Of a DNA stretch of 64,000 nucleotides, positions 14,195 through 57,452 are shown piece after piece. Both the position numbers and the translations under genes were made by a program. Below the pieces are notes generated by a model. It was not told where the DNA came from. It ran no database searches and was given only the letters and a program-made list of their open reading frames with translations. This DNA comes from Vicinamibacterales bacterium (GTDB lineage: Bacteria > Acidobacteriota > Vicinamibacteria > Vicinamibacterales > UBA823), in contig CBDANA010000008.1 in assembly GCA_965197385.1 (NCBI GenBank), positions 31,717 through 95,716 of the forward strand, given 5' to 3'. Numbering within the stretch: position 1 is the stretch's first letter; every line of letters begins with the position of its first letter.

Positions 14195-15699
14195 ATGGCT
14201 AAACCAGTGGCTGAACCAGGCCGCTTGCGCGTGTCCCGCCTCGTCCCGGCCGTCTGGCTGTGCTTGCTGCTCGCTGGCGGCACTGCCCAGGCGCAGGTGC
14301 CGGACCAGGAGCATGACCTCGGCGCCGGCGACAGCGTCATCCAGATCCTGGGCGGTCTCCTGTTCGACTCGGTGGGCGACAGCGTCCGGCCCAACCCGGG
14401 TCTCCTCATCCGAAACGGCGTCATCCTGGCGGTCGATGCGGAGCTGGGCGACGCCCCACGCGCCGGGGCGACCGTCATCACGCTTCGGGACGACGAGACG
14501 ATCCTCCCGGGACTCTTCGACCTGCACGCCCACTACGCCGTGGACCTGTTCGGCGAGGGCCGGGTCGACGAGTACGACGTCAACCCGCTGGTCTTCCTGG
14601 CGAACGGCGTCACCTCGACGTTTCCTGCCGGTGAGGTCGATCCGGAGGGCATGCGCGCCGCGCGGCTGCGTCTCGACGCCGTGGAGCAGATCGGGCCGCG
14701 TCTTTACAATTCGGGACCCTATTTCGGGACGGCTCGGCCCGGTTGGCAGGCCGGCGACGTCACCGCGGCAGACATTCACCGCGACGTGGACGCCTGGGCG
14801 GCCAAGGGCGCACGGGGGTTCAAGGCGAAGGGAATCCGTCCGGAGCATCTCGAGATCCTCATCGCGCGCGCACACCTCCACGGCCTGCCGGTCACCGGAC
14901 ATCTCGGATCCGGATACCGGCGTTCGGTCAATCCGCGCGATGCCATCGCGATGGGCATCGATCGCATCGAGCACTTTCTCGGCGGCGACGCCCTCACCTC
15001 CGATCGATCGGCCTACGCGTCGCTCGAGGTGCTGGACACCGCGCGCCCAGAGGTCGCGGCGATCATCCAGCAGTATCTCCGCCACCGGGTGTTCTTCGAC
15101 CCCACGCTGACCGCCTACGGATACTTCGGGCAGCGTGAGCCGACGGTGTACGAGTACTGGGCCGACGAGATGGCGCTGCTCACGCCATACGCGCGACGCG
15201 TCGTCGAATCGCGTCTCCCTCGCCGCGTCAGCGCCCAGTTCGAGAGAATCTACTGGATCAAGCGGCGGACCCTGAAGGCGTTCTACGACGCGGGCGGCGC
15301 CGACCTGATCACGCTCGGCACGGACCATCCCAGCTGGGGGGAGTTCTTCTCCGGCTTCGGATCGCACCGGGAGCTGCACGCGATGGTCCTGGCCGGCATT
15401 CCCGAGGCGGCGGCGCTCAAGATCGGCACGATCAACGGCGCCGGGCGCTCGGCGTGAGCGACCGGCTGGGGACGATCGAGCCGGGCAAGCTTGCCGACCT
15501 GATTGTCGTCGCCGGTGATCCGCTGCAGGACATCCGCATGACCCGGCGGGTACGCCTCGTCGTGAAGGCGGGTATCGCCTACGATCCGGCCGAGTTGCTC
15601 GAGTCGGCCCGCGGACGCTTGGGGCCGGCCAGCCAGGACGACGCCGACTGGTGGAAAGGCCGCCTCCGGTTCGCGTCGGCGCGCGAGGAGCAGCCGTGA
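14195..15699 (+). pseudogene. Secreted amidohydrolase-family protein, split by a 1-nt frameshift near 15440-15445
   Basis: ORF 14096..15457 (..ILPGLFDLHAHYAVD..GHLGSGY..IDRIEH..) ends ..KIGTINGAGRSA*. ORF 15454..15699 continues SDRLGTIEPGKLADLIVVAGDPLQDI..VVKAGIAY, the canonical amidohydrolase C-terminus. Adding one C in GCCGGG would restore ..TINGARALGVSDRLGTIEPGK... Confidence 0.85.
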
Positions 15700-16871
15700 C
15701 GACCGTCCGATCCGACACCCGCCGGATCCAAGCGATCCGCCCGCCGGTCGTCGCTGTCATCCAGCGGCTGATCGCATCGACGCCAGGCACCATCTCCCTC
15801 GGCCAGGGCATGGTTCGATTCGGGCCACCGGCGGCGGCGGCCGAAGCGCTGGCACGTGCCGGCGGGTCGCCGGACCTGCATCGCTACGGTCCAGTGGACG
15901 GCTTGCGCCCGCTCGTCGAGGGGTTGGCGGACAAGCTCGAGCAGGACAACGGCATCACCGTCTACCCCGCGAGCCGCGTCGTCGTCACGGCGGGCAGTAA
16001 CATGGGCTTCGTCAACGCGGTCCTGGCCATCGCCGACCCCGGCGACGAAATCGTGCTGCCCGTCCCGTTCTACTTCAATCATGAGATGGCGGTCGTCATG
16101 GCCGGCTGCCGGCCAGTGCCGGTCCCCACTGACGAGCACTACCAGCTCGACCTCGACGCCCTCGAGGAGGCAATCACGCCGCGGACCCGCGCCGTCGTGA
16201 CGGTCTCCCCGAACAATCCGGCCGGCGTGATCTATCCGGAAGCGGCGCTGCGGACCGTCAACACGCTGTGCCGCGATCGCGGCCTGTTCCACATCTCGGA
16301 CGAGCCGTACGAGTACTTCCTCTTCGACGGCGCCACCCACTTCTCACCCGGCAGCCTCCCCGACGCCGGGGCGCACACCATCTCGCTGTATTCCTTTTCC
16401 AAGGCGTTCGGGTTTGCCGGCTGGCGGATTGGCTACATGGTAATCCCGGAGGCGTTGGTCAGCGCGGTCGACAAGATTCAAGACACCATCCTGGTCTGTC
16501 CGCCGGCCGCCAGCCAGTATGCCGCGGCGGGCGCGCTGTCAGTCGGTGTGGCCTACTGTCGCGAACGTTTGCCCGAGCTGGCCGAAGTGCGGCGCATCGT
16601 CCGCGACACGCTGGCCGACGTCTCCGACCTGTGCACGCTGCCGGACGCCGACGGCGCGATGTACTACCTGGCCCGCATCCAGGCGCCGATCGGCTCGCTC
16701 GACCTCGCCACACGCCTGATTCATGAGCACCGAGTGGCGGTCATTCCAGGGACCGCGTTCGGGCTCGCTGACGGATGCTATCTGCGCATCTCCTATGGCG
16801 CCGTGGACGCGCGGGAGGCGGCCGAGGGCACGTCGCGGCTGGCGCGGGGACTGCGTGCGATCGTCGGGTGA
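15696..16871 (+). CDS. Class I/II PLP-dependent aminotransferase
   Basis: ..ISLGQGMVRFGPP..VVVTAGSNMGF..GDEIVLPVPFYFNHEM..VSPNNPAGV..ISDEPYEYF..SFSKAFGFAGWRIGY.. The GTG at 15696 overlaps the upstream stop (GTGA). Confidence 0.88.
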   Translation: MTTVRSDTRRIQAIRPPVVAVIQRLIASTPGTISLGQGMVRFGPPAAAAEALARAGGSPDLHRYGPVDGLRPLVEGLADKLEQDNGITVYPASRVVVTAGSNMGFVNAVLAIADPGDEIVLPVPFYFNHEMAVVMAGCRPVPVPTDEHYQLDLDALEEAITPRTRAVVTVSPNNPAGVIYPEAALRTVNTLCRDRGLFHISDEPYEYFLFDGATHFSPGSLPDAGAHTISLYSFSKAFGFAGWRIGYMVIPEALVSAVDKIQDTILVCPPAASQYAAAGALSVGVAYCRERLPELAEVRRIVRDTLADVSDLCTLPDADGAMYYLARIQAPIGSLDLATRLIHEHRVAVIPGTAFGLADGCYLRISYGAVDAREAAEGTSRLARGLRAIVG

Positions 16872-16905
16872 GGCTGCCGCCATGACTGCATGACTGCGTG
16901 ACCGC

Positions 16906-17448
16906 ATGACCGAGCACCTCCCTTACACGGCCACGACCCTGTCGGCAGCCTACGAAGGCATCGACCGTCTCCCGGTGTCGTTGCTCCTCGACAACGTCCG
17001 CAGCCTGTACAACGTCGGAGCCTTCTTCAGGAGCGCCGACGCCGCCGGGCTCGACCACCTCTACCTGTGTGGCTACACGGGTCACCCGCCGAGCCGCGAG
17101 ATCGCGAAGACCGCGCTCGGCGCGGAAACGGCGGTCGCGTGGAGCCGATGCGCCGATCCGCGGGCGCTGCTGGAACGGCTCGCGACGGACGGCGTCGAGC
17201 TCGCGGCGATCGAAACGAGCGTGCGGGCCGTCGATCTGTTCGACTGGGAACCGAGGTTTCCCATCTGTGTCCTGTTCGGGAACGAGGTCGAGGGACTGCG
17301 CGCGGAGTTGCTGGAGCGATGCGACACGCACGTGAGGCTGCCCATGCTGGGTGTGAAGCGCTCGCTCAACGTCGCGACCGCCGGCGGCGTCGTCGCCTAT
17401 GAGCTGCTGCGCAAGTACCGACACCGCCTCGAGCTGGCGCCGCGCTAG
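16906..17448 (+). CDS. SpoU/TrmH-family RNA 2'-O-methyltransferase
   Basis: 180 aa, ..LLLDNVRSLYNVGAFFRSADAAG..LFGNEVEGL..LPMLGVKRSLNVATAGGVVAYEL.. Its TAG stop (17446-17448) is built from the MITE junction. Confidence 0.85.
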   Translation: MTEHLPYTATTLSAAYEGIDRLPVSLLLDNVRSLYNVGAFFRSADAAGLDHLYLCGYTGHPPSREIAKTALGAETAVAWSRCADPRALLERLATDGVELAAIETSVRAVDLFDWEPRFPICVLFGNEVEGLRAELLERCDTHVRLPMLGVKRSLNVATAGGVVAYELLRKYRHRLELAPR

Positions 17449-17639
17449 CAGCCCGTGGTGAAAGTCTCACTGCATTCGACCGCCGATGCATCCCGCCATG
17501 GGCGGCGCTGGGCGTTGTCCACGATGGGTCAAATACTCCCGGTATGCTCCCGCCTCGCGCCTGGCGGGGCCGACCGCTGCCTCGGGCTTGACCTTAGCGG
17601 GGTCTCGGTGCCGCGCTGGACTTTCACCACGGGCTGCTA
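17446..17639. mobile_element. MITE (190 bp) with 19-bp perfect terminal inverted repeats and flanking TA duplication
   Basis: TA-GCAGCCCGTGGTGAAAGTC (17446-17466) ... GACTTTCACCACGGGCTGC-TA (17619-17639). There is no ORF inside. The TA flanks fit IS630/Tc1-mariner-type transposition. Confidence 0.75.
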
Positions 17640-18809
17640 AGCGATCGACCGGGTGAGCATCGCCTCGGCGATCGCCCGGTAGCCCGCCGCCGCGCCGGTC
17701 AGCTGGCTGACCTCAAGATACTCGTCGCAGACGTGCGCGTGGTGCTCCGACGACGGGCCAAAGCCGATCGTCGGGACCCCCGCAGCACCGGCACTGTAGG
17801 CCGCATTCGTGCAGAACTGATAACTCCGCATCGAAGAATCGAGCCGGGCGGCGCGCAGCCCGCCGAGCGCCTGCTGCACGAGCACGTGCGACTCGTCGGT
17901 CTGCCAGGGTGCGTACCACTTCGGCTCGTCCCAGCGTATCCCGGTGTAGCTCTGATAGTCGGTCGTCGCCAGGTGCAGGGTTGTGTCCGCCGCCCCCGCC
18001 CGCGTGCACGCCTCGCGCATCTCGCCGAACAGCATCGCCTGCGTCTCGCCCGGCAGCAGCCGCCGCTCGTAGGTCGCGCGGCAGCCGCTCGGCACGACCG
18101 AGTGCGCCGGGTACGGCACGGAGATCACGTCGGTCAAGCACATCACCCCCCCTCCGACGAACGGATCGGTCGGCATCGGCAGTGCCTCGATCTCGGCGAT
18201 CACGTCCCGCATCACGTGCACGGCATTCAGGCCGCGGTCCGGCGTCGATGCGTGCGACGGCCGGCCGTGTGTCTCGACGACCACTTCCGCCCGGCCGCGA
18301 CCGGCGCGCACGAGGTGCAGCTCGGAGGCTTCCCCGATGACCACGAAATCAGGGTGAATCGACTGCATGACGTGACGGAGCGCCGCACCCTCGATCAGCT
18401 CCTCACCCACGGAAGCCGAGACGACGGCGCGTCCGGCCGTCGCCTCTCGATCCAGCCCGGCCACGGCGTGGACCATCGCCGCCAGCGCGCCCTTCATGTC
18501 CGAGCTGCCACGCCCGTAGATGCGATCATTCTCGAGCGCCGCGCCGAACGGGTCGTGCGTCCAACCCTCACGCGGCACGACGTCGACCGTGTCCATGTGC
18601 GCGTCGAACAGGAGCACGGGGCCGTCTGTGCGCCCCTCGACGACGCCGACCACGTTGCCCGCCTCGTCGGTCGTCACGCGGTCGAAGCCCAGCCGCTCCA
18701 TTTCCTCCCGGACGCGCACAGCCATCGCCTGCTCGTGGCCGAGCACACTCGGCGTCCGCACCAGGGCGCGGGTGAACTCGACCAGCGCCGCCTCGCCTTG
18801 GCCGGTCAT
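17637..18809 (-). CDS. M20-family metallopeptidase/deacylase (ArgE/DapE/YgeY-like)
   Basis: 390 aa, ..LVRTPSVLGHEQ..LLFDAHMDTV..GRGSSDMKGALAAM.. Confidence 0.85.
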   Translation of the reverse strand: MTGQGEAALVEFTRALVRTPSVLGHEQAMAVRVREEMERLGFDRVTTDEAGNVVGVVEGRTDGPVLLFDAHMDTVDVVPREGWTHDPFGAALENDRIYGRGSSDMKGALAAMVHAVAGLDREATAGRAVVSASVGEELIEGAALRHVMQSIHPDFVVIGEASELHLVRAGRGRAEVVVETHGRPSHASTPDRGLNAVHVMRDVIAEIEALPMPTDPFVGGGVMCLTDVISVPYPAHSVVPSGCRATYERRLLPGETQAMLFGEMREACTRAGAADTTLHLATTDYQSYTGIRWDEPKWYAPWQTDESHVLVQQALGGLRAARLDSSMRSYQFCTNAAYSAGAAGVPTIGFGPSSEHHAHVCDEYLEVSQLTGAAAGYRAIAEAMLTRSIA

Positions 18810-18819
18810 CCTCGCTTTC

Positions 18820-22385: not shown

Positions 22386-22392
22386 ATCGACC

Positions 22393-23130
<738 letters not shown>

Positions 23131-27257: not shown

Positions 27258-27767
27258 CTACTGGGTGCGGGCGGTCGAGGGCAGCACGATGCACTTGAGC
27301 CGTATGTAGGTCACGAGGTTGCCGTAGTGCTCGTTGTTGTGGGCGACGTTGAACATGAGGCCCCACACCCGCGTCCGCTCACCGACGAGCTCACCGACCT
27401 TGGCATCGGTCATCGGGGCATAGACACCGTCGCAATACTCGAACGAGGTCCTGAGCCCCTCCACCAGTGCGGCCTTCGCCGTCACGTCCTGTTCGTAACT
27501 CGTCGAGCTCGGGTTGCTGTCGCCGGCCGCCGAGGAGCAGAAGAAGAACTGCGTGCCGGCGACATGGCCGATGAACTCGCCGATGCTACGGACCTCCGGC
27601 GTCGGCCGGAAGCTATACTCGGCCTCCGGGACCAGCTCGGCCGTCTCGATCAAGTTCAGCCGGATGCTTTTGTAGAACTGGATCAAATGCTCCGTCACCG
27701 GATTGTCACTGTCCTGGGCCATTGCCGGCACGCTCGTCACGAGCACGGCAGCCACGAGCCACGTCAA
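27258..27767 (-). CDS. DinB-family (DinB_2-like) protein with a signal peptide
   Basis: 169 aa; ..EAEYSFRPTPEVRSIGEFIGHVAGTQ.. and ..MFNVAHNNEHYGNLVTYIRL.. give the His triad pattern of the DinB superfamily. Confidence 0.7.
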   Translation of the reverse strand: MTWLVAAVLVTSVPAMAQDSDNPVTEHLIQFYKSIRLNLIETAELVPEAEYSFRPTPEVRSIGEFIGHVAGTQFFFCSSAAGDSNPSSTSYEQDVTAKAALVEGLRTSFEYCDGVYAPMTDAKVGELVGERTRVWGLMFNVAHNNEHYGNLVTYIRLKCIVLPSTARTQ

Positions 27768-27963: not shown

Positions 27964-28968
27964 TTAGCGTCTCGACGCCGAAACCCTGCCGGCGGTCTCG
28001 AGCATCGCGTCGGTGGCCGCGCGACTCACCTCGACGAGGCGCGCCGCCACCCCGTCCCGGGATCGGGTGCCGGGGGTCGGCTGCTCGGCCATCACGACGT
28101 AGACAATCACGCCCTCCGGTCCATCCCAGAATCCCGATCGAATCCGGGTCATCGGGTCGCTGCCGAGCGATCCGCTCTTGAAGTAATGCATCCCCAGCGA
28201 GCCGTCATCCTCCGGCACTCGCAGGATCTTCCAGAGCGCGGTCACCGTGTCGCTCGAGAGCCCGGGCAGGTCGCGTGCGGCCACTCGCTGCAGCACCGCA
28301 GCCAGCGCCGCGGCCGTGGCCTCGTTGTCGCCGGTGACGTCGCGGGCTGCGAGCATGTAGCGCCGCACCACGAGCCCGCCGAACGCCGGATCCCGATCGT
28401 GGATGAGGCCGGTCAGCGCCTCCGGGCCGCCCAGCAGCGCGGTCGTGACGTTCGCCGCGGCGTTGTAGACCGCGTTCGACACGTCGGTGCCGCGGATCAT
28501 CATCTACCCGATCCGCCGGATCGTCGCATCGGCGATCTCGGCCCGTATGTCGGCCCGGTCGTCTACCGTGAAGTGCGCGATGGCCGGGTGGGCGTCGTCG
28601 TTGACGATCGCATCGGCGCCAGACGCCGGCGCGTCGAGCGCGTCGGCATAGGCGGCGAACAGCTCGATCAGATAGGCGGTCCTGATGGCGCTGGCCGACG
28701 CCCGGATCGTCGAGGCCTCGCGCGCGAACCAGGCCTCGCCGGTCGGTCCGCCGACCCACACGCTCAGCGCCAATCCGTCGCCGCGGCCTGGCGTGACGAG
28801 CGCGTCGAGACGCCGGTCGAGTGCCTCGACGTCGACCGTTGGCGTCGGCACCTGCGCCGGATTGGCCGATTGCGGCTCGACGGGCGGCGCGCCGTAGCCG
28901 GCCACCCACAGCCCAGCCACCAGGGCTAGCAGCTGACTCGGCCGGCTAGTCGTCCATCCAGCGCTCAT
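27964..28968 (-). pseudogene. Class-A beta-lactamase-fold serine hydrolase interrupted by an in-frame TAG (28504-28506)
   Basis: ORFs 28504..28968 and 27964..28503 are contiguous in one frame: ..ATIRRIG*MMIRGTDVSNAVYN.. The SxxK position reads SAIR (..RASASAIRTAYLIELF..) and a KSG motif is present (..HYFKSGSLG..). Confidence 0.65.
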
Positions 28969-30665: not shown

Positions 30666-31445
30666 TTAGTACCCGCTGCCGCCGCCCCGGGCCGAGTCCG
30701 GCACCGACGCCTGATAGATCACCCGGCCGACGAAGAACGGGCCCATCGCCTGGATGAACTCGGAGGTCTGGCGAGTGAATCGCATGTCTTTGATCAGCTT
30801 GGACAACGGATACAGGTCCGGCCCGAGAATGCCGAGCACGAATTCATTGTCGTCCCGATCCAGGCCGTGGCACTCCAGCCGAATGTCGACGGCATGGCCG
30901 GCCTCGCCGTAGCCGCGCCCGATCATCGCGTGCTCGCCCATGATCTTCGCCTGCTCGCCCCGCGGAAGCCGGTTGAACGCACCGAAGCGCCTGAGTGGAT
31001 ACCACACGGCCCACTCGAGCTCTGGGTTGAGCGCGTGCCGCCGCGCCTTGCGCAGCAGGAAGTCTTCCACGTCTGGCTCCCGGCCGCCCGCATACGTCCG
31101 ACCGAGCATCGTGAAATCTGGAAGGGGCATCAGCGCGGTGAACTCCGGCGTGAGGAACAACTCGCGCGCCACGGTGGCGAAGTGGCGCGGATCCTCCGTC
31201 AGCACCAGCACACCGATACCGCGCGGATCGTTCACGTTGGCGTAGACCACGGCTTCCAGCCCACTCCGCCGAACCGCCTCGACCGCCGGCGCTGTGTCCA
31301 GCACACCGGTAAACACCTGCAACTGCACGAACAGCCGCCGATCGAGCGTCTGCGGCGCGCCGCGCCGCGGCCCGCCATGCTCCAGCAGGTCTGGAACGAA
31401 GCGGTCGAACGGCGCTCCCCCAACTGATGCGTGTCGGTCACCCAT
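30666..31445 (-). CDS. Chlorite-dismutase-family protein (Cld/HemQ-like)
   Basis: ..WAVWYPLRR...FN.LP..EQ..IM.EH...GR.Y......D.RL.CHGLD..DNEFV.G..G.DL.PLS.L...MR.T.QTS.. The start is the ATG at 31445 (a GTG lies at 31448), directly abutting the hexanucleotide array. Confidence 0.7.
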   Translation of the reverse strand: MGDRHASVGGAPFDRFVPDLLEHGGPRRGAPQTLDRRLFVQLQVFTGVLDTAPAVEAVRRSGLEAVVYANVNDPRGIGVLVLTEDPRHFATVARELFLTPEFTALMPLPDFTMLGRTYAGGREPDVEDFLLRKARRHALNPELEWAVWYPLRRFGAFNRLPRGEQAKIMGEHAMIGRGYGEAGHAVDIRLECHGLDRDDNEFVLGILGPDLYPLSKLIKDMRFTRQTSEFIQAMGPFFVGRVIYQASVPDSARGGGSGY

Positions 31446-31446
31446 C

Positions 31447-31562
31447 ACTCATACTCATACTCATACTCATACTCATACTCATACTCATACTCATACTCAT
31501 ACTCATACTCATACTCATACTCATACTCATACTCATACTCATACTCATACTCATACTCATAC
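31447..31562. repeat. Perfect hexanucleotide microsatellite, (ACTCAT)x19 plus AC
   Basis: Counted directly: 114 nt of uninterrupted ACTCAT units from 31447 to 31560, followed by AC. It is AT-rich in a GC-rich context and reads (ATGAGT)n on the minus strand. Confidence 0.98.
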
Positions 31563-31653: not shown

Positions 31654-32603
31654 TTACGCGCCGTCGAGAACTGCTCGCACCTTTCGGGTGAGGGTCTCCT
31701 CCGTCAACGGTTTCGGCAGGAACGCGAGCCCAGGCTCCAGGACCCCGTGGCGCACGATCAACTGATCGGCGAACCCGGACATGTAGAGCACTTTCAGCGT
31801 CGGACAGAGCTCGGAGGCGGCCATGGCCAGCTCCCGACCGTTCATACCCCGCATGACGACGTCGGTCAGCAGCAAATCGACCCGGCCGGCATGGGCGCGG
31901 CATTCACGTAGCGCGGCCGCGCCGCCCGACGCCTCGATGACGGTGTAGCCGCTCTTCTGGAGGACCTGACGGGCCAGCTGGCGCACGGACTGCTCGTCGT
32001 CGACGAGCAAAATCGTCTCGGTGCCGCGGGGATTCGCGCTCGACGCCTCGGGCGCGGTCGCCGAGTTGGCTGGCCCCTCGACTTCCGGCAGATAAATTCG
32101 GAAGGTCGTCCCCTGCCCCGGCTCGGACTCGGCCGTGATCGTCCCGCCACTCTGGGTGACGATGCCGTAGGCGGTCGACAATCCGAGCCCGGCCCCCTTG
32201 CCGCGAGGCTTCGTCGTGAAGAACGGCTCGAAGACATGCGCACGCGTCTCCTCTCGCCGACCAGGGCACGCAGGCGCGGCGCGCAGCGACTGACGAACGA
32301 TCCGAGATCGACGATCTGCGGCTGGAGAATCTGCCGCTGACTGAACGCCAGCAACTGGTTCGTCAGCTCGGCCGCGCGCTGCCCGGCGCCCAGAATTTTC
32401 TTGACGTCGTCGACCCTCGCGTCGTCGCCCGGCAACGCTTCCAGCACGATCTGGGCAAAGCCATTGATGGTCGTCAGCAGGTTGTTGAAGTCGTGGGCGA
32501 CACCGGCCGCCAGACGACCGATCGCCTGCAGTTGCCGTGTCTCCTGGCGCTGGTCTTCGATCGTCAGAGTCTTGGTGACATCCTCACGTAGCCGCTTGGT
32601 CAT
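31654..32603 (-). pseudogene. Remnant of a hybrid sensor histidine kinase/response regulator (no sensor domain, internal deletion of most of the ATPase domain, frame change)
   Basis: ORF 31866..32603 has the H-box ..[20 protein letters not shown].. then ..[24 protein letters not shown], after which the frame is lost. A third frame reads ..[33 protein letters not shown].. and continues into ORF 31654..32181, which has an intact REC domain (..[22 protein letters not shown]..). The N and G1 boxes are missing. Confidence 0.8.
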
Positions 32604-36321: not shown

Positions 36322-37611
36322 CTACCGGACGTAGCCGAGCGAACGGAGGGTTTCCATGCCTTCCTCGCTCAGTCCCGGCACCTCACCGGCCGACACCGCC
36401 GTTCGCGGTTCGCGCAGCGCCTGTCCCAGTAGGGCGGCAAGGCATAGCGATGTGTCGAGCTCTACGGAAACGAGGTTCGTCGTTTCGCCGGGATCGGCGG
36501 TGAGGTTGTACACTTCCGGTCGGGCCAGGTCGTCGCCTCGTACAATGACCTTCCACCCGAGCGTGCGGTACGCATAGGCGGGCCGCTCGCCGACGGATCG
36601 CGCGACCACCGATCGCCTGACCTCGTACGTCGCTGGGGCCAGAAGGTCCGATCCCGTTAGAGGTCGATCGGGCTCGAGTCCTACGTAGCCGAGCACCGTC
36701 GGTAGGACGTCGGCGAGCGTCACCAACGCCTCGGTGTCCACCGATTCCGGAACGACACCGCCGGGCAGGCGCTGGATGAACGGAATCCCGAGCATCTCGT
36801 CGTAGACGGTCGTGTTGTGGCCCATGCGGCCATGTTCCTCGAACGCTTCACCATGATCGGACAGCACGATCACCATCGTCTGATCCCACCGGTCGCGCCG
36901 CCGTAAGGTCTCCAACACTTGACCCACCGCATCGTCACCCATGCGCAGGTTACCGTCGTAGAGCGACACAATGTGGTTCAGATCGGCCGCGCCCGGCTGC
37001 AGCTCGCCCTGATTGATCGCGCGTACCGTCCGCAACAGGCCGGTGTACGGTCCAGCGTAGTCGGCGTCGGTGAAGATGTCGAACTCCTCCGTGGGTTCAT
37101 ACGGCAAATGGGGAGGGACATAGTGCAGCATCAGGAGCAGCGGCTGATCGGAGTCCTAGAGGAGGTGTTCGTTGGCCAGCGCCGACAGCCGGTGCGGGTT
37201 GTTCCATTCCTCGTGCTGCCGTCCATCCGGCCCGCGCCACAGTTCGTGAAACTCGTCGCAGCCTTGATCAGTGCCGGAGGCGACCGAGTGGTTCGCGTTC
37301 GCTGTGTAGCAGACCGTTCGGTATCCGACGTCTTGGAGGTACTCGGCCAAGGTGCGGGCATCGTCGCCCAGGACCCGATCCTGGGAGATCACCTCGTGCT
37401 CGTCGAACGACAATCCCGTGATCATCGTGGGCACCGATGAGCGGGTGTACGGCGTCGATGCGAACGCGTGGCGGAAGACGAGGCTCTCGGTGGCCAGATC
37501 GTCGATGTACGGCGTCGTATCACGTCCGTAGCCATACACGCCGACGTGATCGGCTCGGGCAGCGTCCAGCAAGATCACGACGATATCGGGCAGCGCTTCG
37601 GTCCCTGACAC
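36322..37611 (-). pseudogene. Sulfatase-family hydrolase interrupted by an in-frame TAG (37156-37158)
   Basis: ORF 37156..37611 (..IVVILLDAARADH..FASTPYTRSSVPTMITG..) ends ..ANEHLL*. The same frame continues DSDQPLLLMLHYVPPHLPY... into ORF 36322..37131 (..VLSDHGEAFEEHG..GHNTTVYDE..). Confidence 0.8.
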
Positions 37612-37643: not shown

Positions 37644-37925
37644 CCGAGCCGGTGGAGCAAGGAGTTTCTCGAGGCCGGCAAGAAGCGTCTTGTCGGCGAT
37701 ACGAGCCGTGAAGCGACGGCCCCCGAGGTCACCGATCTGCGCAAGGAGAATAGCCGCCTGAAGCAGCTCGTGGCCGAGGTCGTCCTCGAAAACCGCCTGC
37801 TCAAAAAAAACGTGACGGGCTCCGACTCGGGAGACGACACGTGCGACTGACGGCGGCCGAGAAGGCCGAAGTCATTCGCTTGGTCGAAGGCTCAGACCCA
37901 GCAGTCTCGGGTCGAAGGAATTCTA
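37644..37925 (+). pseudogene. IS3-family-like transposase remnants (end of OrfA plus first ~25 codons of OrfB)
   Basis: ..HPSRWSKEFLEAGKKRLVGD......VTDLRKENSRLKQLVAEVVLENRLLKK.. is a leucine-zipper OrfA tail. It is followed by the overlapping VRLTAAEKAEVIRLVEGSD.. and is then degenerate. Confidence 0.6.
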
Positions 37926-38059: not shown

Positions 38060-38320
38060 ACGGGATATGTGTTTTAAAAAAACGTCCGCGGCCTGCCTGG
38101 GCCGCACCCAACTGATCATCGTCAAGTTGTCTCCGCGGGTCGACCACCACGGTCCCCCGCGGGACCCACGCGTGCGACCGGCCCATCGCCAGATTCGCGC
38201 CCGGTTTATCCACAAATACGAGCCGCGCGGGATCTACCTGCACGACCCACTGGCAGAACGGGTGACGCGGCTTCTGCCAGGCATGCCCCGGCGAGTGCCC
38301 ACCGGGGTGCACCTTTCGTT
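38060..38320 (-). pseudogene. IS630-family transposase remnant (frameshifted fragment around the first catalytic Asp)
   Basis: ..DPARLVFVDKPGANLAMGRSHAWVPRGTVVV.. matches the ..lvF.DEsG.n..m.r.ygWa.rG.. block. It continues in another frame as ..GDNLTMISWV... Confidence 0.55.
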
Positions 38321-40372: not shown

Positions 40373-43300
40373 CTACCGCCGCGCGTCCGCATCCTGACGG
40401 AGAATGATGGCCGGCACGCCCTTGCTCCGCACCAACTCGTTGAAACGGGGCAGCTCCGTGGCCAGCGTCACCTCGGCCTGCTCGAGCAGTTCCGCAAGAC
40501 CGGGCTGAATGTCCGCGAACCGCTCCCGGGTCCCGGCGGAGGGACGCCGGTCGGCCCCGGCCACGTTGTTGTACAGCGCGACGAACTGATTATCCAGGCG
40601 CCCCGGAAAATTGAGGGCGTCCTGACCCTCTTCACCCTCCAGCTGGGTCAACTCGCCCTCGATCGCCGTGAGCCGCTCACTCAACGCCGCGGCGGCGGCG
40701 GCCACGTCATCGCCGTGGCCGGCCCGCTCCAGGCGCTCGCCGATGTCGGTCGCCTGCGATTTGACCTCCCGCAGTCGGCGCAGCTCCGCGTAGAGATCGG
40801 CGATACGAAGCCCCACCGCCCTGGCCAACTCCAGCTGCTCTCGGTACTCCGCCTGCGTCGTCTCCAGGCGCGGATCGCCCCACACCTCGAACGACTGCGT
40901 GTCGCTCCAGTCACCCATCGTCGCCCGCACCTGGTACCGGCCCGGCACGACGCGCGGCGCGCCCTGGGATCGGTCCCACATGACGATCCCCTCTGAAATC
41001 TTGAACAGCGACGCATAGCGAGCGTTCCACGACACCTTGTTCAAGCCGTCGCTCAGCGTCACGGCGTCGGGATCGTCGTCGGCCGCCTCCCCGCCTTCAT
41101 CCTCGTCTTCTGCGCGGCCCGTGTAGCTGCGCACCACTTGGCCGGCCTCGTCGAGGATGTCGATCGTCACCTCAACCTCACTGTCCGTCGCTTCGTCCAG
41201 ATACAGGAAGATGGACGCAGGGCCGGCGCCGCTGCGGTACACGTCGGCCGGCGCGAACAGGCGCGGGCCGTCGACCGCGACGCCCGGCTCGAGCTGCCGG
41301 ACCACGGCGAGATCGTCGAGCACCCAGAAGGCGCGTCCCTGTGTCGCGACGATGAGGTTGCTCTGGTGCACCGCCAGGTCGGTCACCGGCGTCACCAGCA
41401 GGTTCAGCTGCAGCGGCTGCCAGTGCGCGCCGTCGTCGAAGGAGACGTACAGCCCGAACTCGGTACCGGCGTAGAGCAGGCCGCGTCGCCCTGGATCCTC
41501 CCGTACGACGCGCACGAACTGATCGGCCGGAAGGCCGTTGTCGCCGTCGGTGAGACGCGCCCAGGTGGGGCCGTAGTCGTTCGTCTGAAAGATGTAAGGT
41601 GCAAAGTCGTCCTGCCGGTACCGATAGACGGCCACGTGCGCCCGTCCCGCATCGTGGCGCCGACAGATCGACCACGTTGACGACGCCAAACTCGGGCATC
41701 CCCGGTGGCGTGATCTCGGTCCACGCGCCACCGCCATCCCGCGAAAGATGAATGCGCCCGTCGTCGGAGCCAGCCCACAGCAATCCAGCCGCGTGGGGTG
41801 ACTCCTCGAACGCGAAGATCGTGCCGTAGACCTCGACGCCGGTGTTGTCGCGCGTGATGCCACGACCGCCTGAATAGTCCTGCTTCGTGCCATCGTCGCG
41901 GGTCAGGTCTGGGCTGATGACCTCCCAGCGGTGTCCGCCGTCGCGCGTCCGGTGCACGACCTGCGAGGTGTGGTAGACGACATCCGGATCGTGCGGGGAA
42001 ATCCGGATCGGCGCGTTCCACTGGAACCGGTAGGTCATGTCGACCGCGCGCTGGCCGGTCTGCAAGTCCGGATAGGCGCGGATGTTTTCGAGAATCCGCG
42101 TGCGGACGTTCATCCGGGTGATGGTGCCGCCGTAGCTCCCAGCGAAGACGATGTCCGGATCTCTCGGATCCACCGCCATGTGCCCGCTCTCTCCGCCGCC
42201 CACCGAATAGAAGTTGCCGGGGCCCCAGCTCGCAACCAACACAGTGCTGTTGTCCTGCTGGGCGCCGTAGACGCGGTACGGGAACTGGTTGTCCGCCGTG
42301 ACGCGGTAGATCTCGGCGGTCGGCTGATTCACCTGCGTCGACCAGGCCTGCCCCCGGTGAGCGACACGTTCGCGCCGCCGTCGTTCGCATTGACCATCAC
42401 CGCCGGATCGTCGGGATTGATCCACAAGTCATGGTTGTCCCCATGTGGCACGGCGATCTGGTCGTAGGTACGGCCTCGATCCGTGGACTTGTAGAGCGCG
42501 GTATTGAGTGCGTAGACCGTATCCGGATCGTTCGGATCGGCGTAGATGTGGATGTAATACCAGGCGCGCTGCAACAACTTCCGCTCGCCATTGACGCGCT
42601 CCCAGGTGTCACCGGCGTCGTCCGACCGATACATGCCGCCCCGGTCGTCGGCCGCCTCGATGAGCGCCCAGACCCGCTCCGGATTCGCTGGGGACACCGC
42701 CACCGCCGTTTTCCCCACCATGACGTCGGTCGGCAGCCCGCCCTCGAGCCGCGTCCACGTGTCGCCGCCGTCGGTTGTCCTGTAGATCCCGCCGTCCATG
42801 CTGCCGCTGTCTATCGACCAGGGGGTGCGCCGCGCCGCCCACATGCCGGCGTAGAGCACTCGAGGATTCGACGGATCCATCGACAGATCGACGGCGTCGG
42901 TCTGGTCGCTCACCGCCAGGACGTGCTCCCAGGACTCCCCGCCGTCCTTCGACCGGAAGACGCCGCGCGGCGCGCTCGGACCGAAGAGGTTGCCGAGCAC
43001 GGCGACGTACACCAGATCGTGGTTCGTCGGATGGACCCGGATCTTTCCGATTTGGCCGGCCTCGGGCAGGCCGGCATGCCGCCAGGTCTTGCCGGCGTCG
43101 GTCGAGCGGTACATTCCGACGCCGGGCGATACATTGCCGCGGGGGCAGGCCGACCCGGTCCCGACGTAGATGACGTTCACATCGGAGTCCGCGACGGCGA
43201 TCGCCCCGATCGACCCGGCCTCGAACGCCTCGTCGGAGACCGGGATCCACGACTGGCCGGCATCGACCGTCTTCCACACGCCACCACCGGTCAAACCGAA

Positions 43301-43552
43301 GTAGTAGACCAGGGGCTGCCCCCGGACGCCGGTGACTGCCGTCGACCGTCCACCACGCGAAAAATCGAGCTGACGATACTCGAGCGTGTCGAACAACGCC
43401 GGATCGACCGTGATGTGACGCGCCGCCTCGGGTGCGCGCGGCCGAGCGCCGAGTGGGACGGGCGCAGCGATCGCACTCCCCACCAGGACGAGGACTGCCA
43501 GCAGGATCCCGCTGAACGTTCCGACCGCGGATGATGACGATGACCAGGACAT
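40373..43552 (-). pseudogene. Large secreted sortilin/BNR-repeat (VPS10-like) protein broken into three ORFs by two frameshifts
   Basis: ORFs 42329..43615, 41178..42425 and 40373..41893 each carry one consecutive third of a single ~1060 aa protein (..GGGVWKTVDAGQSW.., ..YRSTDAGKTW.., ..TTDGGDTW.. / ..QPTAEIYRVTADNQFPYRVYGAQQDNSTV.. / ..YRYRQDDFAPYIFQTNDYGPTW..). The shifts are at the C5 run 42351-42355 and near 41655-41662. Confidence 0.85.
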
Positions 43553-46851: not shown

Positions 46852-46860
46852 CGGGGGGGG
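46852..46860. repeat. G9 homopolymer in the convergent intergenic region between the SDR and ggt genes
   Basis: Counted directly. It is part of CCCCGC-AGAGACCC-GCGGGG hairpin-capable sequence. Confidence 0.9.
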
Positions 46861-48575: not shown

Positions 48576-48601
48576 GTCGATTCCCCTCACCTCTTGCCCC
48601 A

Positions 48602-51043
48602 TCAGCGGCTCAGCGGCTCAGCGGGCACCAGCCGTTCGGTGCGCTCAGCGACCGACTCGATCGTTGCGCGCGAATAGAATACTGGAAAATACTTCCCCTC
48701 CGCCCACAGGTCGAAGAGATCGCGGTAATGCGGGTCGTCGGGATCGCCCGACTGCCCCGGCGCGTTGGTCCCAACCGAATGGTCCCAGTTCTCGGTGTCG
48801 GCAATGATCCGGAACGAGGCGCCCGACGTTTGGTTGTCGCCGTTGCCGGTGTTGTTGAGGGTACGGCCGTAGCCGCCGCGGGCCACGGGGCCCACGTCGA
48901 GCCTGGCTCGTGTCGCGTCGTCGACCGCCGAGCTCATCGGGTGGCGGATCAAGGCGTGCTTGTACGCCGGCTGGCCGTACCGCCACGCGCGCATGTCCGG
49001 CCCCAATCGTGATTCGAGATCATCGATCGCCTGCTGTAAGCTGTCGGCGAGCAGCCGATCGCGGCCGGCGATCGGGTCGTCACCGAAGCGCCCGTCGGGT
49101 GCCGCCAGCCAGTTGAGGAGCTTCTTCATATTGAGCCCACCGAGCAGATCGCGGATCGACTCCGGCACCAGGAGATCCCGGGCATTGCTCGCGAGACGCC
49201 GTTCCCACGCCACGTAGATCGCCGCGGCAATCGACTCACGGTCGAGCACGGCGTCCCACTCCAGCAGCCGACGGCGCGCCTCACGGGCCGTGTCTCCGTC
49301 GATGCTGACACCCTCCAGAAACGGCACGAGGTTGCGCGCCAGCACCGACAGCTCGTCGTGCTGCAAGCGCATCATGTCGATGATGGTGTGCCGCCGCCCG
49401 GACCGGAGCACCTCGTTCAGCCGGACGGCACGCAATTCGTCGCCCCACGTGTAGTGCAGCGCATCGAGGTGAGGGTAACCGTTGGGCACCATGAAGTTGT
49501 TCGCCGTGCCGAAATATCCCTCGGGCGGGTTGACGACGTGCGGCAGCGCCTGGATCGGCAGGTAGCCGTCCCACTCGTATCGACCGTCGCCCGGCATCGG
49601 AACGAGGCCGCTCCAGTTCGGTCGGATGGGTGACACGCCGACGGCCTGATAGCCGATCGTCTTCTCTCGATCGGCCCACACCATGTTCTCCGCCGGAATG
49701 CGGCTGTAGCTGCACGCCTCCCGGAACGCCTCCCAGGTGGTGGCCTGGTCCATTCTGAGGCTCGCCAGGTACGGGGCCGACCCGATGTCGAGCCACGCCG
49801 CCCGCAACGCATAGGCCGTGTGATGCTCGAGATCCTCGTGCAGCACCGGGCCGTGACGCGTGTACTTGAGCGCCACCGTGACGGGCGACTCTCCCTTGAC
49901 GGTAATCTCCTCCTCGATGACCCGCATGCGCTCCCAGCCGCCGAGGTACCGGTACTCCAGCGGGTCATCCGGATTCGTGTCGTAAACGTACAGGTCCTCG
50001 CTGTCTTGACCGAAGACAGTCAAGCCCCAGGCGCCGTACTCGTTGTGGCCGATGGAGACGCCAGGCAGAACCGGCTCACCACCGCCGATGACGTTCCACC
50101 CAGGTCCGACGAGGTGCACCCAGTAACGGAGCGATGGCGCCTGCTGGACGCGATGCGGATCGTTCGCCATGAACGGGAAGCCGCTCAGCGTCCGTCCGTC
50201 GCCGATCACCCAGTTGTTGCTGCCGATCGCTTCATGCTCGTCGGCCAGGTCCGCTTCGGCCGGGATCGCCGCCGCGCGCCCCTCGAAGGACGCCCGGTCG
50301 GCCCGGAACGCCGGGACGATGTCTTCGGGAACGAAGCGGATCGGCCGCTTGAAGGCTCGATAGACGGTCAGGATCTCGTCGGTCAGGAGCGTTCCGTCGA
50401 TGGCCGGGTCGAGAGCAAGGTCGGGCTCTCCCGGCCTGAACCAGGACAGCTCGCGCACCTGCTCGGCCCCGACGCGCTCGACCGCCTGCCCGTACGCGAC
50501 CTCGCTGGTCAGATTGGCGAGGAGCCCCTGATGCCGAGAGATCACGACTTCGGCGGTCCAATGGCCCGGCGTGATCCCGAGCAGCGCGAACTCGATCGGG
50601 AGCAACTCGGGCTGCTGCTCGCTGAGATTGATGTAGGCGTTGATCCCGCGAACGAACGCCTGGATGATGGCCTCACCGTGCGGGTGATAGTGGTTGAGCT
50701 CCTGCTGAAGATTGCCGCGAACTCGAAGAAGGCGAGTGCCGATGTCGTCTTCCAGCATCCGCCGGCCGAGGATCTCCGCAGTCGTTCCAGTCGCCTTGCG
50801 ACGCCACAGCTCGAACTGAAACAGCCGGTCGCGCGCCGCGTTGAATCCCTGGGCGAAGAACAGATCGGCTTCGGTCTCGGTGTAGATATGGGCGATGCCC
50901 CACCGGTCCTTGATGATCTCCACCGGCTCGGTGAGCCCGGCCAGTTGCAGGGTTTCCGCCTGCGCCTGTGCGCGGCCGGTCGTACCGACCAGCCCAGCAA
51001 AGACGAACACGAGACCGATGGTCACGAGACGAATGATCTTCAT
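48602..51043 (-). CDS. Penicillin acylase family protein (peptidase S45, Ntn hydrolase)
   Basis: ORF 48602..51193, start MKIIRLVTIGLVFVFAG (51043). ..IKDRWGIAHIY.....DLFFAQGF..A.DRLFQ.E..RR...G..AE..G.. and the nucleophile region ..IGSNNWVI. Confidence 0.88.
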   Translation of the reverse strand: MKIIRLVTIGLVFVFAGLVGTTGRAQAQAETLQLAGLTEPVEIIKDRWGIAHIYTETEADLFFAQGFNAARDRLFQFELWRRKATGTTAEILGRRMLEDDIGTRLLRVRGNLQQELNHYHPHGEAIIQAFVRGINAYINLSEQQPELLPIEFALLGITPGHWTAEVVISRHQGLLANLTSEVAYGQAVERVGAEQVRELSWFRPGEPDLALDPAIDGTLLTDEILTVYRAFKRPIRFVPEDIVPAFRADRASFEGRAAAIPAEADLADEHEAIGSNNWVIGDGRTLSGFPFMANDPHRVQQAPSLRYWVHLVGPGWNVIGGGEPVLPGVSIGHNEYGAWGLTVFGQDSEDLYVYDTNPDDPLEYRYLGGWERMRVIEEEITVKGESPVTVALKYTRHGPVLHEDLEHHTAYALRAAWLDIGSAPYLASLRMDQATTWEAFREACSYSRIPAENMVWADREKTIGYQAVGVSPIRPNWSGLVPMPGDGRYEWDGYLPIQALPHVVNPPEGYFGTANNFMVPNGYPHLDALHYTWGDELRAVRLNEVLRSGRRHTIIDMMRLQHDELSVLARNLVPFLEGVSIDGDTAREARRRLLEWDAVLDRESIAAAIYVAWERRLASNARDLLVPESIRDLLGGLNMKKLLNWLAAPDGRFGDDPIAGRDRLLADSLQQAIDDLESRLGPDMRAWRYGQPAYKHALIRHPMSSAVDDATRARLDVGPVARGGYGRTLNNTGNGDNQTSGASFRIIADTENWDHSVGTNAPGQSGDPDDPHYRDLFDLWAEGKYFPVFYSRATIESVAERTERLVPAEPLSR

Positions 51044-51329
51044 ACGTCGCTCCAGTCGACAGGTGCCGCCAGCGGCATTATACGGGGCAGCGTGCGAAGG
51101 CCGGCCCAGGAAGGATCGCTCTCGGAGTGCGTCTAGGCAGAACTTCACAACGCGATTGGCCGCCGCGGGCGCGCCACATCGTCGAGCCGGCATTCGACCC
51201 GCCCGAATCCCCGGCGGCGGAAGCGATCGCTGGACCGGCGAGCCTACCCGGCCAGGCGGACGCCAGCTCGTAGGCCGCGCTGTCGAGCGTTCTTCGTATT
51301 CGCTCTAGCGGCCCTGGACTCACCCCCCC

Positions 51330-51870
51330 ATCCGCCACAGGGTCCGCGCTAGCAGCCCGCGGCCTCCAGAGGACGTCAATCGCCCAGACCTCATCCAGGC
51401 GTTGCGCTAGTCGCTCGAATGCGGCTGGTTCGAGCTTCTTGGTGAGAATGTGGTGCAGCCTCTCACGCCACTCAGCGTCGTCGTTAGACGGATCGTCGGT
51501 CGTACTGCTCTTGGCCTACGGCTTCGTCTTTGGTCCCTCCGTCTTGTCGAGGGCCCTGACGAACTTCACAACTTCGCCCGAATCGATTTCTTCGGTAGCT
51601 TTCGCTTTCGGAGTCAGTGCCCAGACGCCACGGCTTGAGTTCTCCAGCAGTCCAAATTTCCGTAGATAGGTCCGCGCCCAGGCAAGGCGATACGCCACTT
51701 CTGACACATTGCTCTTCTCGGGGTCGTGAAGCTGTCCAAGCACCTCTTCCGGGATGCTCTCCAGTTCAGCAACCTTGTCGTAGATTCCGTCGATCGAGCC
51801 TGACCCCCCCCAAGGCGCAAAGGGCCCGAAGCAACGGGTTCATCAGACTGTCGTATGTTGGCAGCTTCAC
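51330..51870 (-). pseudogene. Mrr-like restriction endonuclease remnant: N-terminal winged-helix (Mrr_N) domain with a +1 frameshift in a C8/G8 tract, an in-frame TAG, and loss of the catalytic domain
   Basis: VKLPTYDSLMNPLLRALCALGG (ORF 51766..52023) continues, after removing one G of the G8 run (51804-51811), as SGSIDGIYDKVAELESIPEEVLGQLHDPEKSNVSEVAYRLAWARTYLRKFGLLENSSRGVWALTPKA.. (ORF 51516..51743). A TAG lies at 51516-51518. The frame then reads ..AEWRERLHHILTKKLEPAAFERLAQRL.. and homology fades. The segment has lower GC. Confidence 0.75.
51804..51811. repeat. C8 (G8 on the coding strand) homopolymer inside the Mrr-like gene
   Basis: Counted directly. It is the site of the +1 frameshift. 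Confidence 0.95.
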
Positions 51871-52185
51871 GATTGTATTTTCCTGACGTCTGACGTCAAA
51901 CAAATGTCGGCCGAACTCGATAACCCAGTATCTGAGCGACGGCTGCGGTGTAGCGCGCCGGTCGGCCGGATTCAATTTGCCAGGAAGTGCTACTACCATC
52001 GTTGCTTGTCGTTGTATCAGCAAGGGCAGCAGGCGGGATACGCAGAACTCGACAACACGGAGGCGGGCCGCAGGTCGCGCCTGAATACCGGTGAGTACTC
52101 AGGCCAATTTCTGACAGATTGCGACTATGATCGCCCCAGGGGCGCGGGCTGATCCGCGCTCCTCCGACCGACTCGAGGGCTCCCC

Positions 52186-52755
52186 ATGGCGTGGATCAAG
52201 ACGATCGGCTACGAACACTCCGCCGGCCTGCTGCGCCTGGAATACGACAAGGCGATCAAGCGCGCCGGCAAGATCTACAACATCGTCGGCATCATGGGCC
52301 TGCGGCCGATGCAGATGAAGGCGAGCATGGATCTCTACGGCGCCATCATGCACGGCCGCGCCGCGCTCAGTCGCGCGCAGCGGGAAATGCTGGCGGTCGT
52401 CGTCTCGCAGATCAACCAGTGTCATTATTGAGTGGAAGCGCACGCCGACGACCTCCGGGCCGAGGTCGCCGAGATCGAGGACGACGCGTTCGTGGACCGC
52501 TTCAAAGTGGACTGGCGCAGCGCCGACCTGACGTCGCTGGACGGTGCGCTCATGGCGTACGCGGAGAAGCTGACCCGCACGCCGTGGGACGTCAGACCCG
52601 AGGACCTGGACCAGCTGCGCGGGGCCGGCGCGACCGACGACCAGATCAGCGACGCGGCCCAGGTGATCGCCTACTTCAATTACATCAATCGGGTCGCCGA
52701 CGGCCTGGGCGTGGACCTCGAGCCGTCGATGCCCCCCGATCCGCGGGGCGGCTAA
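52186..52755 (+). CDS. AhpD/carboxymuconolactone-decarboxylase-family 'peroxidase-related' protein with an in-frame TGA at 52429-52431 (candidate selenocysteine; otherwise a pseudogene)
   Basis: ORFs 52186..52431 and 52432..52755 are contiguous in one frame. The junction reads ..LAVVVSQINQCHY[TGA]VEAHADDLR.., matching C-x-x-[C]-x-x-x-H of the family. The C-terminal half (..ALMAYAEKLT......L..L...G..D..I.DAAQVIAYFNYINR.A..LG) is typical of the family. Confidence 0.6.
52447..52470 (+). promoter_or_regulatory. Hairpin 15 nt downstream of the in-frame TGA; candidate bacterial SECIS element
   Basis: GACGACCUC-CGGGCC-GAGGUCGCC gives 8 Watson-Crick pairs with one A/C mismatch and a 6-nt loop containing G. 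The apical loop is ~27 nt from the U of UGA. Confidence 0.4.
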
Positions 52756-52770
52756 CGGCCCGCAGACGCC

Positions 52771-53763: not shown

Positions 53764-53894
53764 GGCGAACACCTTTCTCCGAATGACCGAATGACCGGAC
53801 GCCCGGCGACGGCTGTATCGTAGTGACCGACCACCCAGAATTGCCCATGGTAAACTCGTCTTGGTTCGGCGGAGCATTCACACGGAGGACCGCC

Positions 53895-56063: not shown

Positions 56064-56097
56064 GGCCTTCGGTTTGGGCCGCACCGAGAGCCCAGAG

Positions 56098-57452
56098 TCA
56101 GGCCCGCACGATGCCGAGCGGCGGAGAGGTCCGCCACCGGCCGCGCGTGAAGTCTGGGAACGCCTGCGGACGGCTGCCGTCGGCCACGGATCGCTCGGAC
56201 AGCTCCGACACCGCGCTCAAGGCCGCCGCATCGTACACGTTCATGTCGGTCGGCAGCCCTTCGCGCAAGCACTTGATCAGTCGGTAGTCCTCCAGGAAAT
56301 CCATCCCCCGTGGGCCGCGCCGCGGGAGCGCCCGCCGATCTCTTGCCAGAGCGGGTGCTCGTACTCGTCGTAGTACGTCTCGGCCGCATCCCACTGGTGC
56401 TCGGCGCTCCGCCCTTCGACGTAGACGCGGTCGGGATAGCCCTGGAAGATCCCCTTGGTCCCCTGCACGAGGTTGATCCGACTGTAGGGCCGCGGCAAAT
56501 TCGTGTCGTGACTGAGGAAGATGGTGCGACCGGTGACAGTCCGGATCAGGCTGACGTTTACGTCCCCGAACGAATACGGCTCGCGGCGCTGCGGCGCGTC
56601 CGGCGGAAAGTGTGCCTCCGCGTAATCTCTGAGCCCGCGGGCGTTGCTGCTCATCGACGCCAGAAAGTCGAACCGATCGTCGCGATTGATGTCCATGCAA
56701 TTGGCGACCGGCCCCAGTCCATGCGTAGGATACAGGTTCCCGTTGCGCGCGATCGAATGCGCACGGCGCAGAGCCCCTCGTTCGCGTTTTCGAACTTCAC
56801 CTCCCGCAGATCGTGCAGGTAGCCGCATTCGCCGTGCAGGATTTCTCCGAACACACCCTGGCGCACCATGTTGAACACCATCATCCATCTCGGCGCGCCC
56901 GTAGTTCACGTTCTCCATCATCACGCAGTGTTTCTGCGTGCGCTCCGCGGTCTCGACGAGCTGCCAGCAGTCGTCGACCGTCACGGCGGCCGGGACCTCG
57001 GTGGCGGCATGCTTGCCGTTCGTCATCGCAACCACGCAGACGGGAACGTGCCATCGCCACGGCGTTGCCGTGAACACGAGATCGAGATCTTCCTCCTGGC
57101 ACATCCGCTCGAAGTCGTGCTCGCCGCGGACGTAGCCGCGCGGTCTGGGCTGCCCCGCGTCCTCGGCCCAGCCCTGCACCCGCGTTACCTTCTCCTCAAC
57201 GATATCGCACACGGCGGCGAGGCGCACGCCCTCGATCCGGAGGAGGTTCCGGCAATGCGAGGAGCCCTGGAGGCCCACGCCGACAAACCCGATTCGCACG
57301 AGGTCGATCGGTGGCGCGGCGAACGGCCGCTCCGGCGCTGGCGCCAGTCGCCGTTGCTGGCCGGCGGCGGCCGCCCGCGGATTAACGATCGCGGCGCCGA
57401 GGCCCGCTGCACCCAGGCCGATGAACGCTCGACGATCAAACCGTGTCACCAT
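56098..57452 (-). pseudogene. Tat-signal Gfo/Idh/MocA-family oxidoreductase (glycoside-hydrolase-109-like) broken by three frameshifts
   Basis: MVTRFDRRAFIGLGAAGLGAA.. ..RIGFVGVGLQGSSH.. ..[13 protein letters not shown] | [38 protein letters not shown] | [37 protein letters not shown]...YEHPLW...AHGG | MDFLEDYRLIKCLREGLPTDMNVYDAAALSAVSELSE..FPDFTRGRW. The consecutive pieces lie in three different frames (ORFs 56277..57452, 56651..56884, 56098..56700). Confidence 0.85.

Follow-up and report, generated by a model that had tools for sequence, protein, structure and literature searches.

Seven of about 32 genes (22%) are broken in one part of a 64,000-nucleotide stretch of DNA from a Vicinamibacterales bacterium (assembly GCA_965197385.1, contig CBDANA010000008.1, positions 31,717 to 95,716 of the forward strand). 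The whole stretch is referred to here as the window, and the census covers its positions 14.2–57.5 kb, with 41 kb of coding sequence. Free-living bacteria usually have a few percent broken genes. The lesions consist of seven small insertions or deletions (indels), one deletion of 244 nucleotides (nt) and three in-frame TAG codons. Most of them probably reflect real decay that is still under way among accessory genes. The region is rich in such genes, has a high gene flux and is visited by insertion sequence (IS) elements of several families.

Lesions in the window

The lesions were checked by six-frame translation, Pfam coverage and DNA alignment to relatives, and every lesion listed in the initial annotation was found at its coordinate (Table 1). 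In all seven genes a frame-disrupting lesion lies within the homology to an intact protein, and the repaired products are covered by Pfam without a break. Intact orthologues are present in relatives for the BNR/sortilin gene (P0001), the GH109 gene (P0131, P0132), the kinase gene (L092) and the beta-lactamase-like gene (L088–L096). Second signs of relaxed constraint are found in the beta-lactamase-like gene, where a lysine has changed to arginine, and in the Mrr-like, sulfatase, kinase and BNR/sortilin genes; there are none in the GH109 gene. A serine-recombinase stub with an in-frame TAG at 4379 lies outside the census range.

The initial annotation had offered genuine gene decay as one reading of these lesions. 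This reading holds for the resolvase stub and for no fewer than five of the seven genes, on account of a large deletion, truncations adjacent to IS sequences, a lost catalytic residue, an excess of amino acid change and decay in a sister population. In the GH109 and amidohydrolase genes, decay may be mixed with assembly error.

Table 1. Damaged genes and related features. Coordinates refer to the window, except in the last row, where they refer to the sister contigs.
Feature	Position	Strand	Lesion or evidence
Amidohydrolase pseudogene with signal peptide	14195–15699	+	1 nt missing in GGCGCCGGGCG, ~15440
Class-A beta-lactamase-like pseudogene	27964–28968	-	in-frame TAG; SxxK lysine replaced
Hybrid histidine kinase/receiver pseudogene	31654–32603	-	244-nt deletion relative to L092; frame shifted
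Sulfatase-like hydrolase pseudogene	36322–37611	-	in-frame TAG 37156–37158
Degraded IS3-family transposase fragment	37650–37897	+	tblastn against annotated plasmids
BNR/sortilin (VPS10-type) pseudogene	40373–43552	-	two shifts; frames 1, 0, 1
Mrr-like restriction-enzyme remnant	~51300–51873	-	TAG 51516–51518; C8 run 51804–51811
GH109 (Gfo/Idh/MocA) oxidoreductase, Tat signal	56098–57452	-	three shifts relative to two relatives
Serine-recombinase (resolvase) stub	4267–4441	-	TAG 4379–4381; Resolvase N-terminal domain, E = 6e-4
AhpD-like (CMD, TIGR01926) gene, intact, predicted selenoprotein	52186–52755	+	TGA 52429–52431 in C-H-Y-U
Sister remnants and deletions, JGI Ga0310121	L097 1780–2097; L098 1–1700		

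Genes with structural damage

In the beta-lactamase-like gene, the in-frame TAG (28504–28506) corresponds to CAG (Gln) in the three closest relatives. Relatives have one continuous gene of ~300 amino acids that spans this site, and the residue at the TAG position is variable, being either Gln or His. The catalytic lysine of the SxxK motif is replaced by arginine in the window only (SAIR), and all nine relatives have SAIK. Of this gene, the sister contigs L097 and L098 retain a remnant that has about the first eight codons, a 648-nt deletion, an in-frame stop of its own and a diverged 3′ end. The lesions and their ancestral states are seen here directly, and so is the decay of this gene in the sister population. 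The protein displays a weak class-A match only with NCBIfam; Pfam gave nothing on either half, and a PDB sequence search gave nothing meaningful. The M23 peptidase gene is separated from the beta-lactamase-like remnant by a DinB-family gene (27258–27767). None of the relatives examined has this gene at that position, and it is probably a lineage-specific insertion.

The deletion in the histidine kinase gene, with its junction at ~32253, takes out the N and G1 boxes of ATP binding, and the junction shows a short microhomology (CGA/GACGA). Pfam recognizes HisKA and then, in another frame, positions 51–109 of the 111 positions of HATPase_c only. About 90 nt below the kinase stop there is a perfect hexanucleotide microsatellite, (ACTCAT) x 19.3 (31447–31562), which is absent from every relative fetched. 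It adjoins the start codon of a chlorite-dismutase-like gene (30666–31448, reverse strand) and could be a slippage-prone switch on the 5′ region of that gene.

When the TAG of the sulfatase-like gene is bridged, the protein gives a single Pfam Sulfatase match over positions 1–300 of 301. The remnant lacks a signal or anchor region and begins at the very start of the catalytic domain, and the gene is absent from all syntenic relatives. The IS3-family transposase fragment is found 40 nt upstream, between the sulfatase remnant and a cysteine dioxygenase gene and well outside the IS island of the window. It shows 57–65% identity to annotated IS3 transposases, with E values down to 5e-20 by tblastn; Pfam was blank. 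By eye, a short stretch at 38154–38222 (reverse strand) is a possible relic of an IS630-type DDE transposase.

The Mrr-like gene carries, in addition to its TAG, a G7-to-G8 insertion (C8 on the forward strand), and a run of seven bases would bring back the frame. Only the N-terminal winged-helix domain can be recognized, and the catalytic domain is not detectable. L087 has no gene at this position, and its spacer between the CMD and amidase genes measures 142 nt, as opposed to 992 nt in the window. The penicillin amidase gene probably starts near 51041, where the sequence MKIIRLV is conserved in L087, and not at the upstream ATG 51193 of the list of open reading frames (ORFs). The spacer that holds the Mrr-like remnant would therefore be longer than the list implies.

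The resolvase stub ends after ~45 codons and adjoins an IS6-family transposase gene (3568–4266). All four TAG-bearing genes thus have a second defect: the lysine to arginine change in the beta-lactamase-like gene, truncation of the sulfatase and resolvase genes, and both truncation and a frameshift in the Mrr-like gene. Neither the 244-nt deletion nor the truncations can have arisen as consensus errors.

Amino acid change in the BNR/sortilin gene

The two shifts in the BNR/sortilin gene are a 1-nt deletion at a C5 run (42351–42355) and a 1-nt insertion at ~41656. The repaired protein is 94% identical, over 99% of its length, to an intact sister protein of 1066 amino acids (P0001). The tree ((window, L001), L083), L084 is favored by 16 informative sites, with 0 and 5 sites for the alternatives. 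Where the other three sequences are conserved, there are 29 unique amino acid changes in the window copy and seven in that of L001 (p = 0.0003). At the codon level, the window branch displays 39 nonsynonymous and 31 synonymous changes and the L001 branch 16.5 and 28.5, respectively, which is a 2.4-fold difference in nonsynonymous change. Synonymous change is thus equal and nonsynonymous change is higher, and this indicates an equal branch time with weaker constraint on the window copy.

Seven genes served as controls: six intact genes (SLT, TPP, M23, GGT, SDR and amidase) and the frameshifted GH109 gene. Four of them were compared with the sister, and GGT, SDR and the amidase were set against L087, a deeper relative. 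Synonymous and nonsynonymous changes in the window and in the sister are 15/13 and 12/10 for SLT, ~11.5/13 and ~14/11.5 for the TPP enzyme, and ~10/14 and ~10/9 for the M23 peptidase. Those in the window and in L087 are 53.5/32.5 and 57/21 for GGT, 30/13 and 26/13 for SDR, and 43/21 and 37.5/25.5 for the penicillin amidase. When the seven controls are pooled, 120 nonsynonymous changes are found in the window and 99 in the comparators, which is nearly symmetric, with a slight and non-significant excess. These counts also show that the assembly has no large load of substitution errors.

Genes with indels only

The GH109 gene has a tandem duplication of GATG (56881–56888), a GG-to-G change at ~56768 and a G6-to-G5 change at 56305–56309. 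The repaired product has 450 amino acids, the same as the intact orthologues, with which it shares 95% (L086) and 87% (L087) identity. The 4-nt duplication is hard to explain as an error. Either the inactivation of this gene is very recent or its two single-base deletions are consensus errors.

In the amidohydrolase gene, the conserved C-terminus runs on in another frame past ~15440. The shift-repaired protein matches Pfam Amidohydro_1 over positions 1–342 of 345 with 70 bits, and the truncated ORF scores 20.6 bits. No close relative of this gene was found. We infer that the single-base indels of the GH109 and amidohydrolase genes are also real; they could still be assembly errors. A 60-nt inverted repeat with 90% complementarity (14073–14132 and 17439–17498) flanks the block formed by the amidohydrolase, aminotransferase and SpoU genes. 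A related sequence adjoins the aminotransferase gene in L091, and therefore the repeat may be a dispersed intergenic repeat.

Relatives and regional setting

The window organism has a G+C content of 67%, with 61–71% across the window, and its proteins are nearest to those of uncultured Vicinamibacterales (Acidobacteriota). Marine metagenomes provide the nearest contigs, which include Tara-type CE.. records, JGI Ga0310121/Ga0310123 and genomes labelled Candidatus Marinacidobacterium. The GTDB representative genomes contain no conspecific, and the best match, in gamma-glutamyltranspeptidase, has 73% identity. The organism is an uncultured marine member of the Vicinamibacterales and appears to be free-living. 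A literature search on the lineage gave nothing of use.

Synteny with the relatives is a mosaic across the region. The BNR/sortilin gene is missing from L088 and L090, the cysteine dioxygenase gene of L091 is a scrap of 25 amino acids only, and some relatives lack the TPP enzyme and chlorite-dismutase-like genes. None of the relatives compared has the sulfatase, Mrr-like, DinB or second S9 peptidase gene of the window. IS elements of L002 and L087 are situated at differing positions. With the exception of the GH109 gene, the broken genes (six of the seven) are part of the set that varies among relatives; many variable genes are nonetheless intact in the window. About eight of the 11 lesions are in variable genes, which make up approximately half of the coding length. 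By a hand estimate the binomial p is ~0.1, and the enrichment is suggestive only.

The sister contigs L097 and L098 were assembled separately and are 94–97% identical to the window at the DNA level. They lack MGMT, amidohydrolase-2 and most of the DUF2961 gene, all three of which are intact in the window. L087, a contig of 985 kb, has its own 1-nt insertion (GCCGAG[A]CAGG, ~16170–16180), which splits the penicillin amidase gene into ORFs of 239 and 568 amino acids. This may be either a real pseudogene or an assembly error. A search of the window spacers with the ORFs of relatives found no further gene remnants, and no RNA family was matched in the window (Rfam). The longest homopolymers in the window are intergenic, G10 (61518–61527) and G8 (46853–46860).

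Decay, error and recoding

Genuine decay would proceed in steps. A gene would become dispensable and selection would no longer maintain it. A first hit, which may be a deletion, an IS insertion, a CAG-to-TAG transition or slippage at a short repeat, would inactivate it, and more hits would then build up neutrally until a deletion clears the remnant. The relatives show the same genes at differing stages of decay. The underlying cause may well be relaxed selection on accessory functions. The initial annotation had proposed relaxed selection on secreted hydrolases, which is too narrow: the kinase, Mrr-like and resolvase genes do not encode secreted hydrolases, and many secreted hydrolase genes are intact.

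Several observations weigh against decay as the main explanation. The lesions are read from an assembly consensus, and several of the indels are within G/C runs. Lesions are not significantly clustered by gene, as 11 random lesions would hit seven or fewer genes with P = 0.08. The nonsynonymous excess of the BNR/sortilin gene gives p = 0.17 (Fisher) relative to the four near-sister controls, and relative to all seven controls p is ~0.03–0.04, a hand estimate that is marginal. The GH109 branch shows no excess substitution (13.5 nonsynonymous and 23.5 synonymous changes, with 9 and 20 in the sister), and the amidohydrolase gene has a single 1-nt deletion and no further lesion.

Perhaps, then, the lesions are a mixture in which the structural damage and the TAG codons are real, and some or all of the single-base indels of the GH109 and amidohydrolase genes, and possibly of the BNR/sortilin gene, are long-read consensus errors in a G/C-rich context. 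At seven per 41 kb of coding sequence (~0.02%), the small indels fit a low-coverage long-read consensus, and the IS island, being intact, points to an assembly from long reads. Three indels are in G/C runs of 5–8 bases, the GH109 gene lacks excess substitution despite its three indels, and in the related long contig L087 a conserved gene is likewise interrupted by an isolated 1-nt frameshift. However, the signature of homopolymer error that had been proposed turns out to be weak. Only two or three of the seven indels are in runs of at least five bases, and four are in runs of three or fewer. There are 18 runs of six or more bases, and the single coincidence with a shift is the C8 run of the Mrr-like gene, which is an insertion; no disturbance is seen at a C7 run of the M20 peptidase gene or at C6 runs in other intact genes. 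Homopolymer consensus error should place indels in the longest runs, mostly as deletions, and this is not the pattern found. The GATG duplication is also not typical of such error, the excess amino acid change in the BNR/sortilin gene is expected of a real pseudogene, and ~30 kb of other genes have no frameshift. We consider a mixture of this kind unlikely. It is highly improbable that the error extends to all small lesions, TAG codons included, and that the genes are functional. Some indels do occur in homopolymers, but a structural defect independent of the TAG is present in each of the TAG-bearing genes, the separately assembled JGI contigs show a degradation of their own in the beta-lactamase-like gene, and the large deletion and truncations are outside the reach of consensus error. 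In addition, 2.3–2.8% of random coding base changes make a stop, and thus three stops imply a substitution error of ~0.3%; three to four random stops would also come with far more indels than are observed. We know of no platform that pairs ~0.3% substitution error with only 0.02% indels, and random error is therefore an unlikely source of the stops.

Recoding would offer another way to full-length products, with the TAG codons read through or reassigned and the shifts programmed. The premature stops are all TAG, and one in-frame stop, the TGA of the AhpD-like gene (see below), does appear to be truly recoded. TAG recoding was nevertheless rejected, as TAG is an ordinary terminator that ends 10 of 40 window genes. 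The initial annotation expected TAG to be the commonest nonsense codon, and with the codon usage of the window 62–64% of stop-creating single-base changes indeed give TAG, in keeping with the alignment of the beta-lactamase-like TAG with CAG. At this share, four TAGs in four premature stops have a probability of ~0.16. The TAG positions are ordinary variable residues, as in the beta-lactamase-like relatives, orthologues are unshifted, and there is no tRNA gene in the window; recoding of this sort is exceedingly improbable. A broader proposal is that the lesion density reflects a genome-wide state, in which a pelagic marine Vicinamibacterales lineage is early in reductive or streamlining evolution. 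IS elements would then be proliferating, purifying selection would have weakened, and secreted hydrolases would be disappearing step by step in sister populations. The slight, non-significant excess of amino acid change in the control genes would be in line with the weakened selection. This proposal appears rather doubtful.

A predicted selenocysteine codon in the AhpD-like gene

The in-frame TGA of the AhpD-like gene had been counted among the lesions. It is instead a conserved codon that is predicted to specify selenocysteine, and the gene is best read as intact. The TGA takes the place of the second cysteine in the CxxC redox motif (NQCHY-TGA-VEAH). The L087 orthologue has the same in-frame TGA, a total of 189 codons as in the window, and conservation of both halves. 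A hairpin, GACCUC-CGGGCC-GAGGUC (~52450–52470), follows ~18 nt past the UGA; it has a 7-bp G+C stem and the loop CGGGCC and is identical in L087. In an exhaustive search, homologues at the TGA column show Cys in full-length proteins and W in others, and many database fragments stop at residue 81 or start at residue 83–84. We interpret the W as the product of gene callers that read TGA as Trp. The CxxU motif, the TGA and hairpin conserved in L087, and homologues that either have Cys or are split at this point together argue for selenocysteine. Other observations do not favor this assignment: the folding z-score of the hairpin, which resembles a selenocysteine insertion sequence (SECIS), is not significant in the G+C-rich context, no Rfam SECIS model matches at the TGA, and neither selA, selB, selC and selD nor any tRNA gene is found within the 64-kb window.

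The protein scores 134 bits with TIGR01926 (cut-off 82) and 74 bits with the NCBIfam 'AhpD_rel_CFYUT (seleno)protein' model, which is below the cut-off of 175. It is thus a TIGR01926-type member and not a CFYUT equivalog. In marine samples, AhpD-like CxxU proteins rank among the selenoprotein families of highest abundance (PMC2398784). The window protein resembles the known members (AhpD-like 1 and 2, Zhang and Gladyshev; TIGR01926) in its CMD/AhpD fold, the C-x-x-U motif, the presence of Cys homologues, a hairpin ~15–40 nt past the UGA and its membership in a marine family. It differs in that it falls below the specific CFYUT cut-off and that the sel machinery is not within the window.

Significance and relation to known systems

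With respect to annotation, the seven genes should be flagged as pseudogenes and not 'repaired', and the AhpD-like gene should be entered as a selenoprotein gene and not as two fragments. The same accessory genes are found at successive stages of decay, with a point lesion in the window, a deleted remnant in one relative and absence in another. These stages provide a small-scale picture of flexible-genome turnover in marine Acidobacteriota. Relative-rate tests and second lesions can also tell decay from assembly error without reads.

The phenomenon is already known and represents ordinary biology; there is no new kind of system here. Bacterial pseudogenes in flexible regions with IS activity display the same mix of lesions, i.e., nonsense transitions, slippage indels, microhomology deletions and IS-adjacent truncations, and the window lesions likewise affect chiefly accessory genes already lost in relatives. 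The window differs from cases of reductive evolution. The organism appears to be free-living, its G+C content is 67%, many hydrolase genes are intact, and the one 64-kb window shows no sign of genome-wide reduction or host restriction. Long-read homopolymer artefacts share with the window the single-base G/C indels in conserved genes, such as the G6-to-G5 change of the GH109 gene and the G7-to-G8 change of the Mrr-like gene. However, the indels of the window are mostly outside long runs, include both insertions and deletions as well as a 4-nt duplication, and leave the longest runs within intact genes unaffected, and the TAG codons, the large deletion and the truncations do not belong to that class of error.

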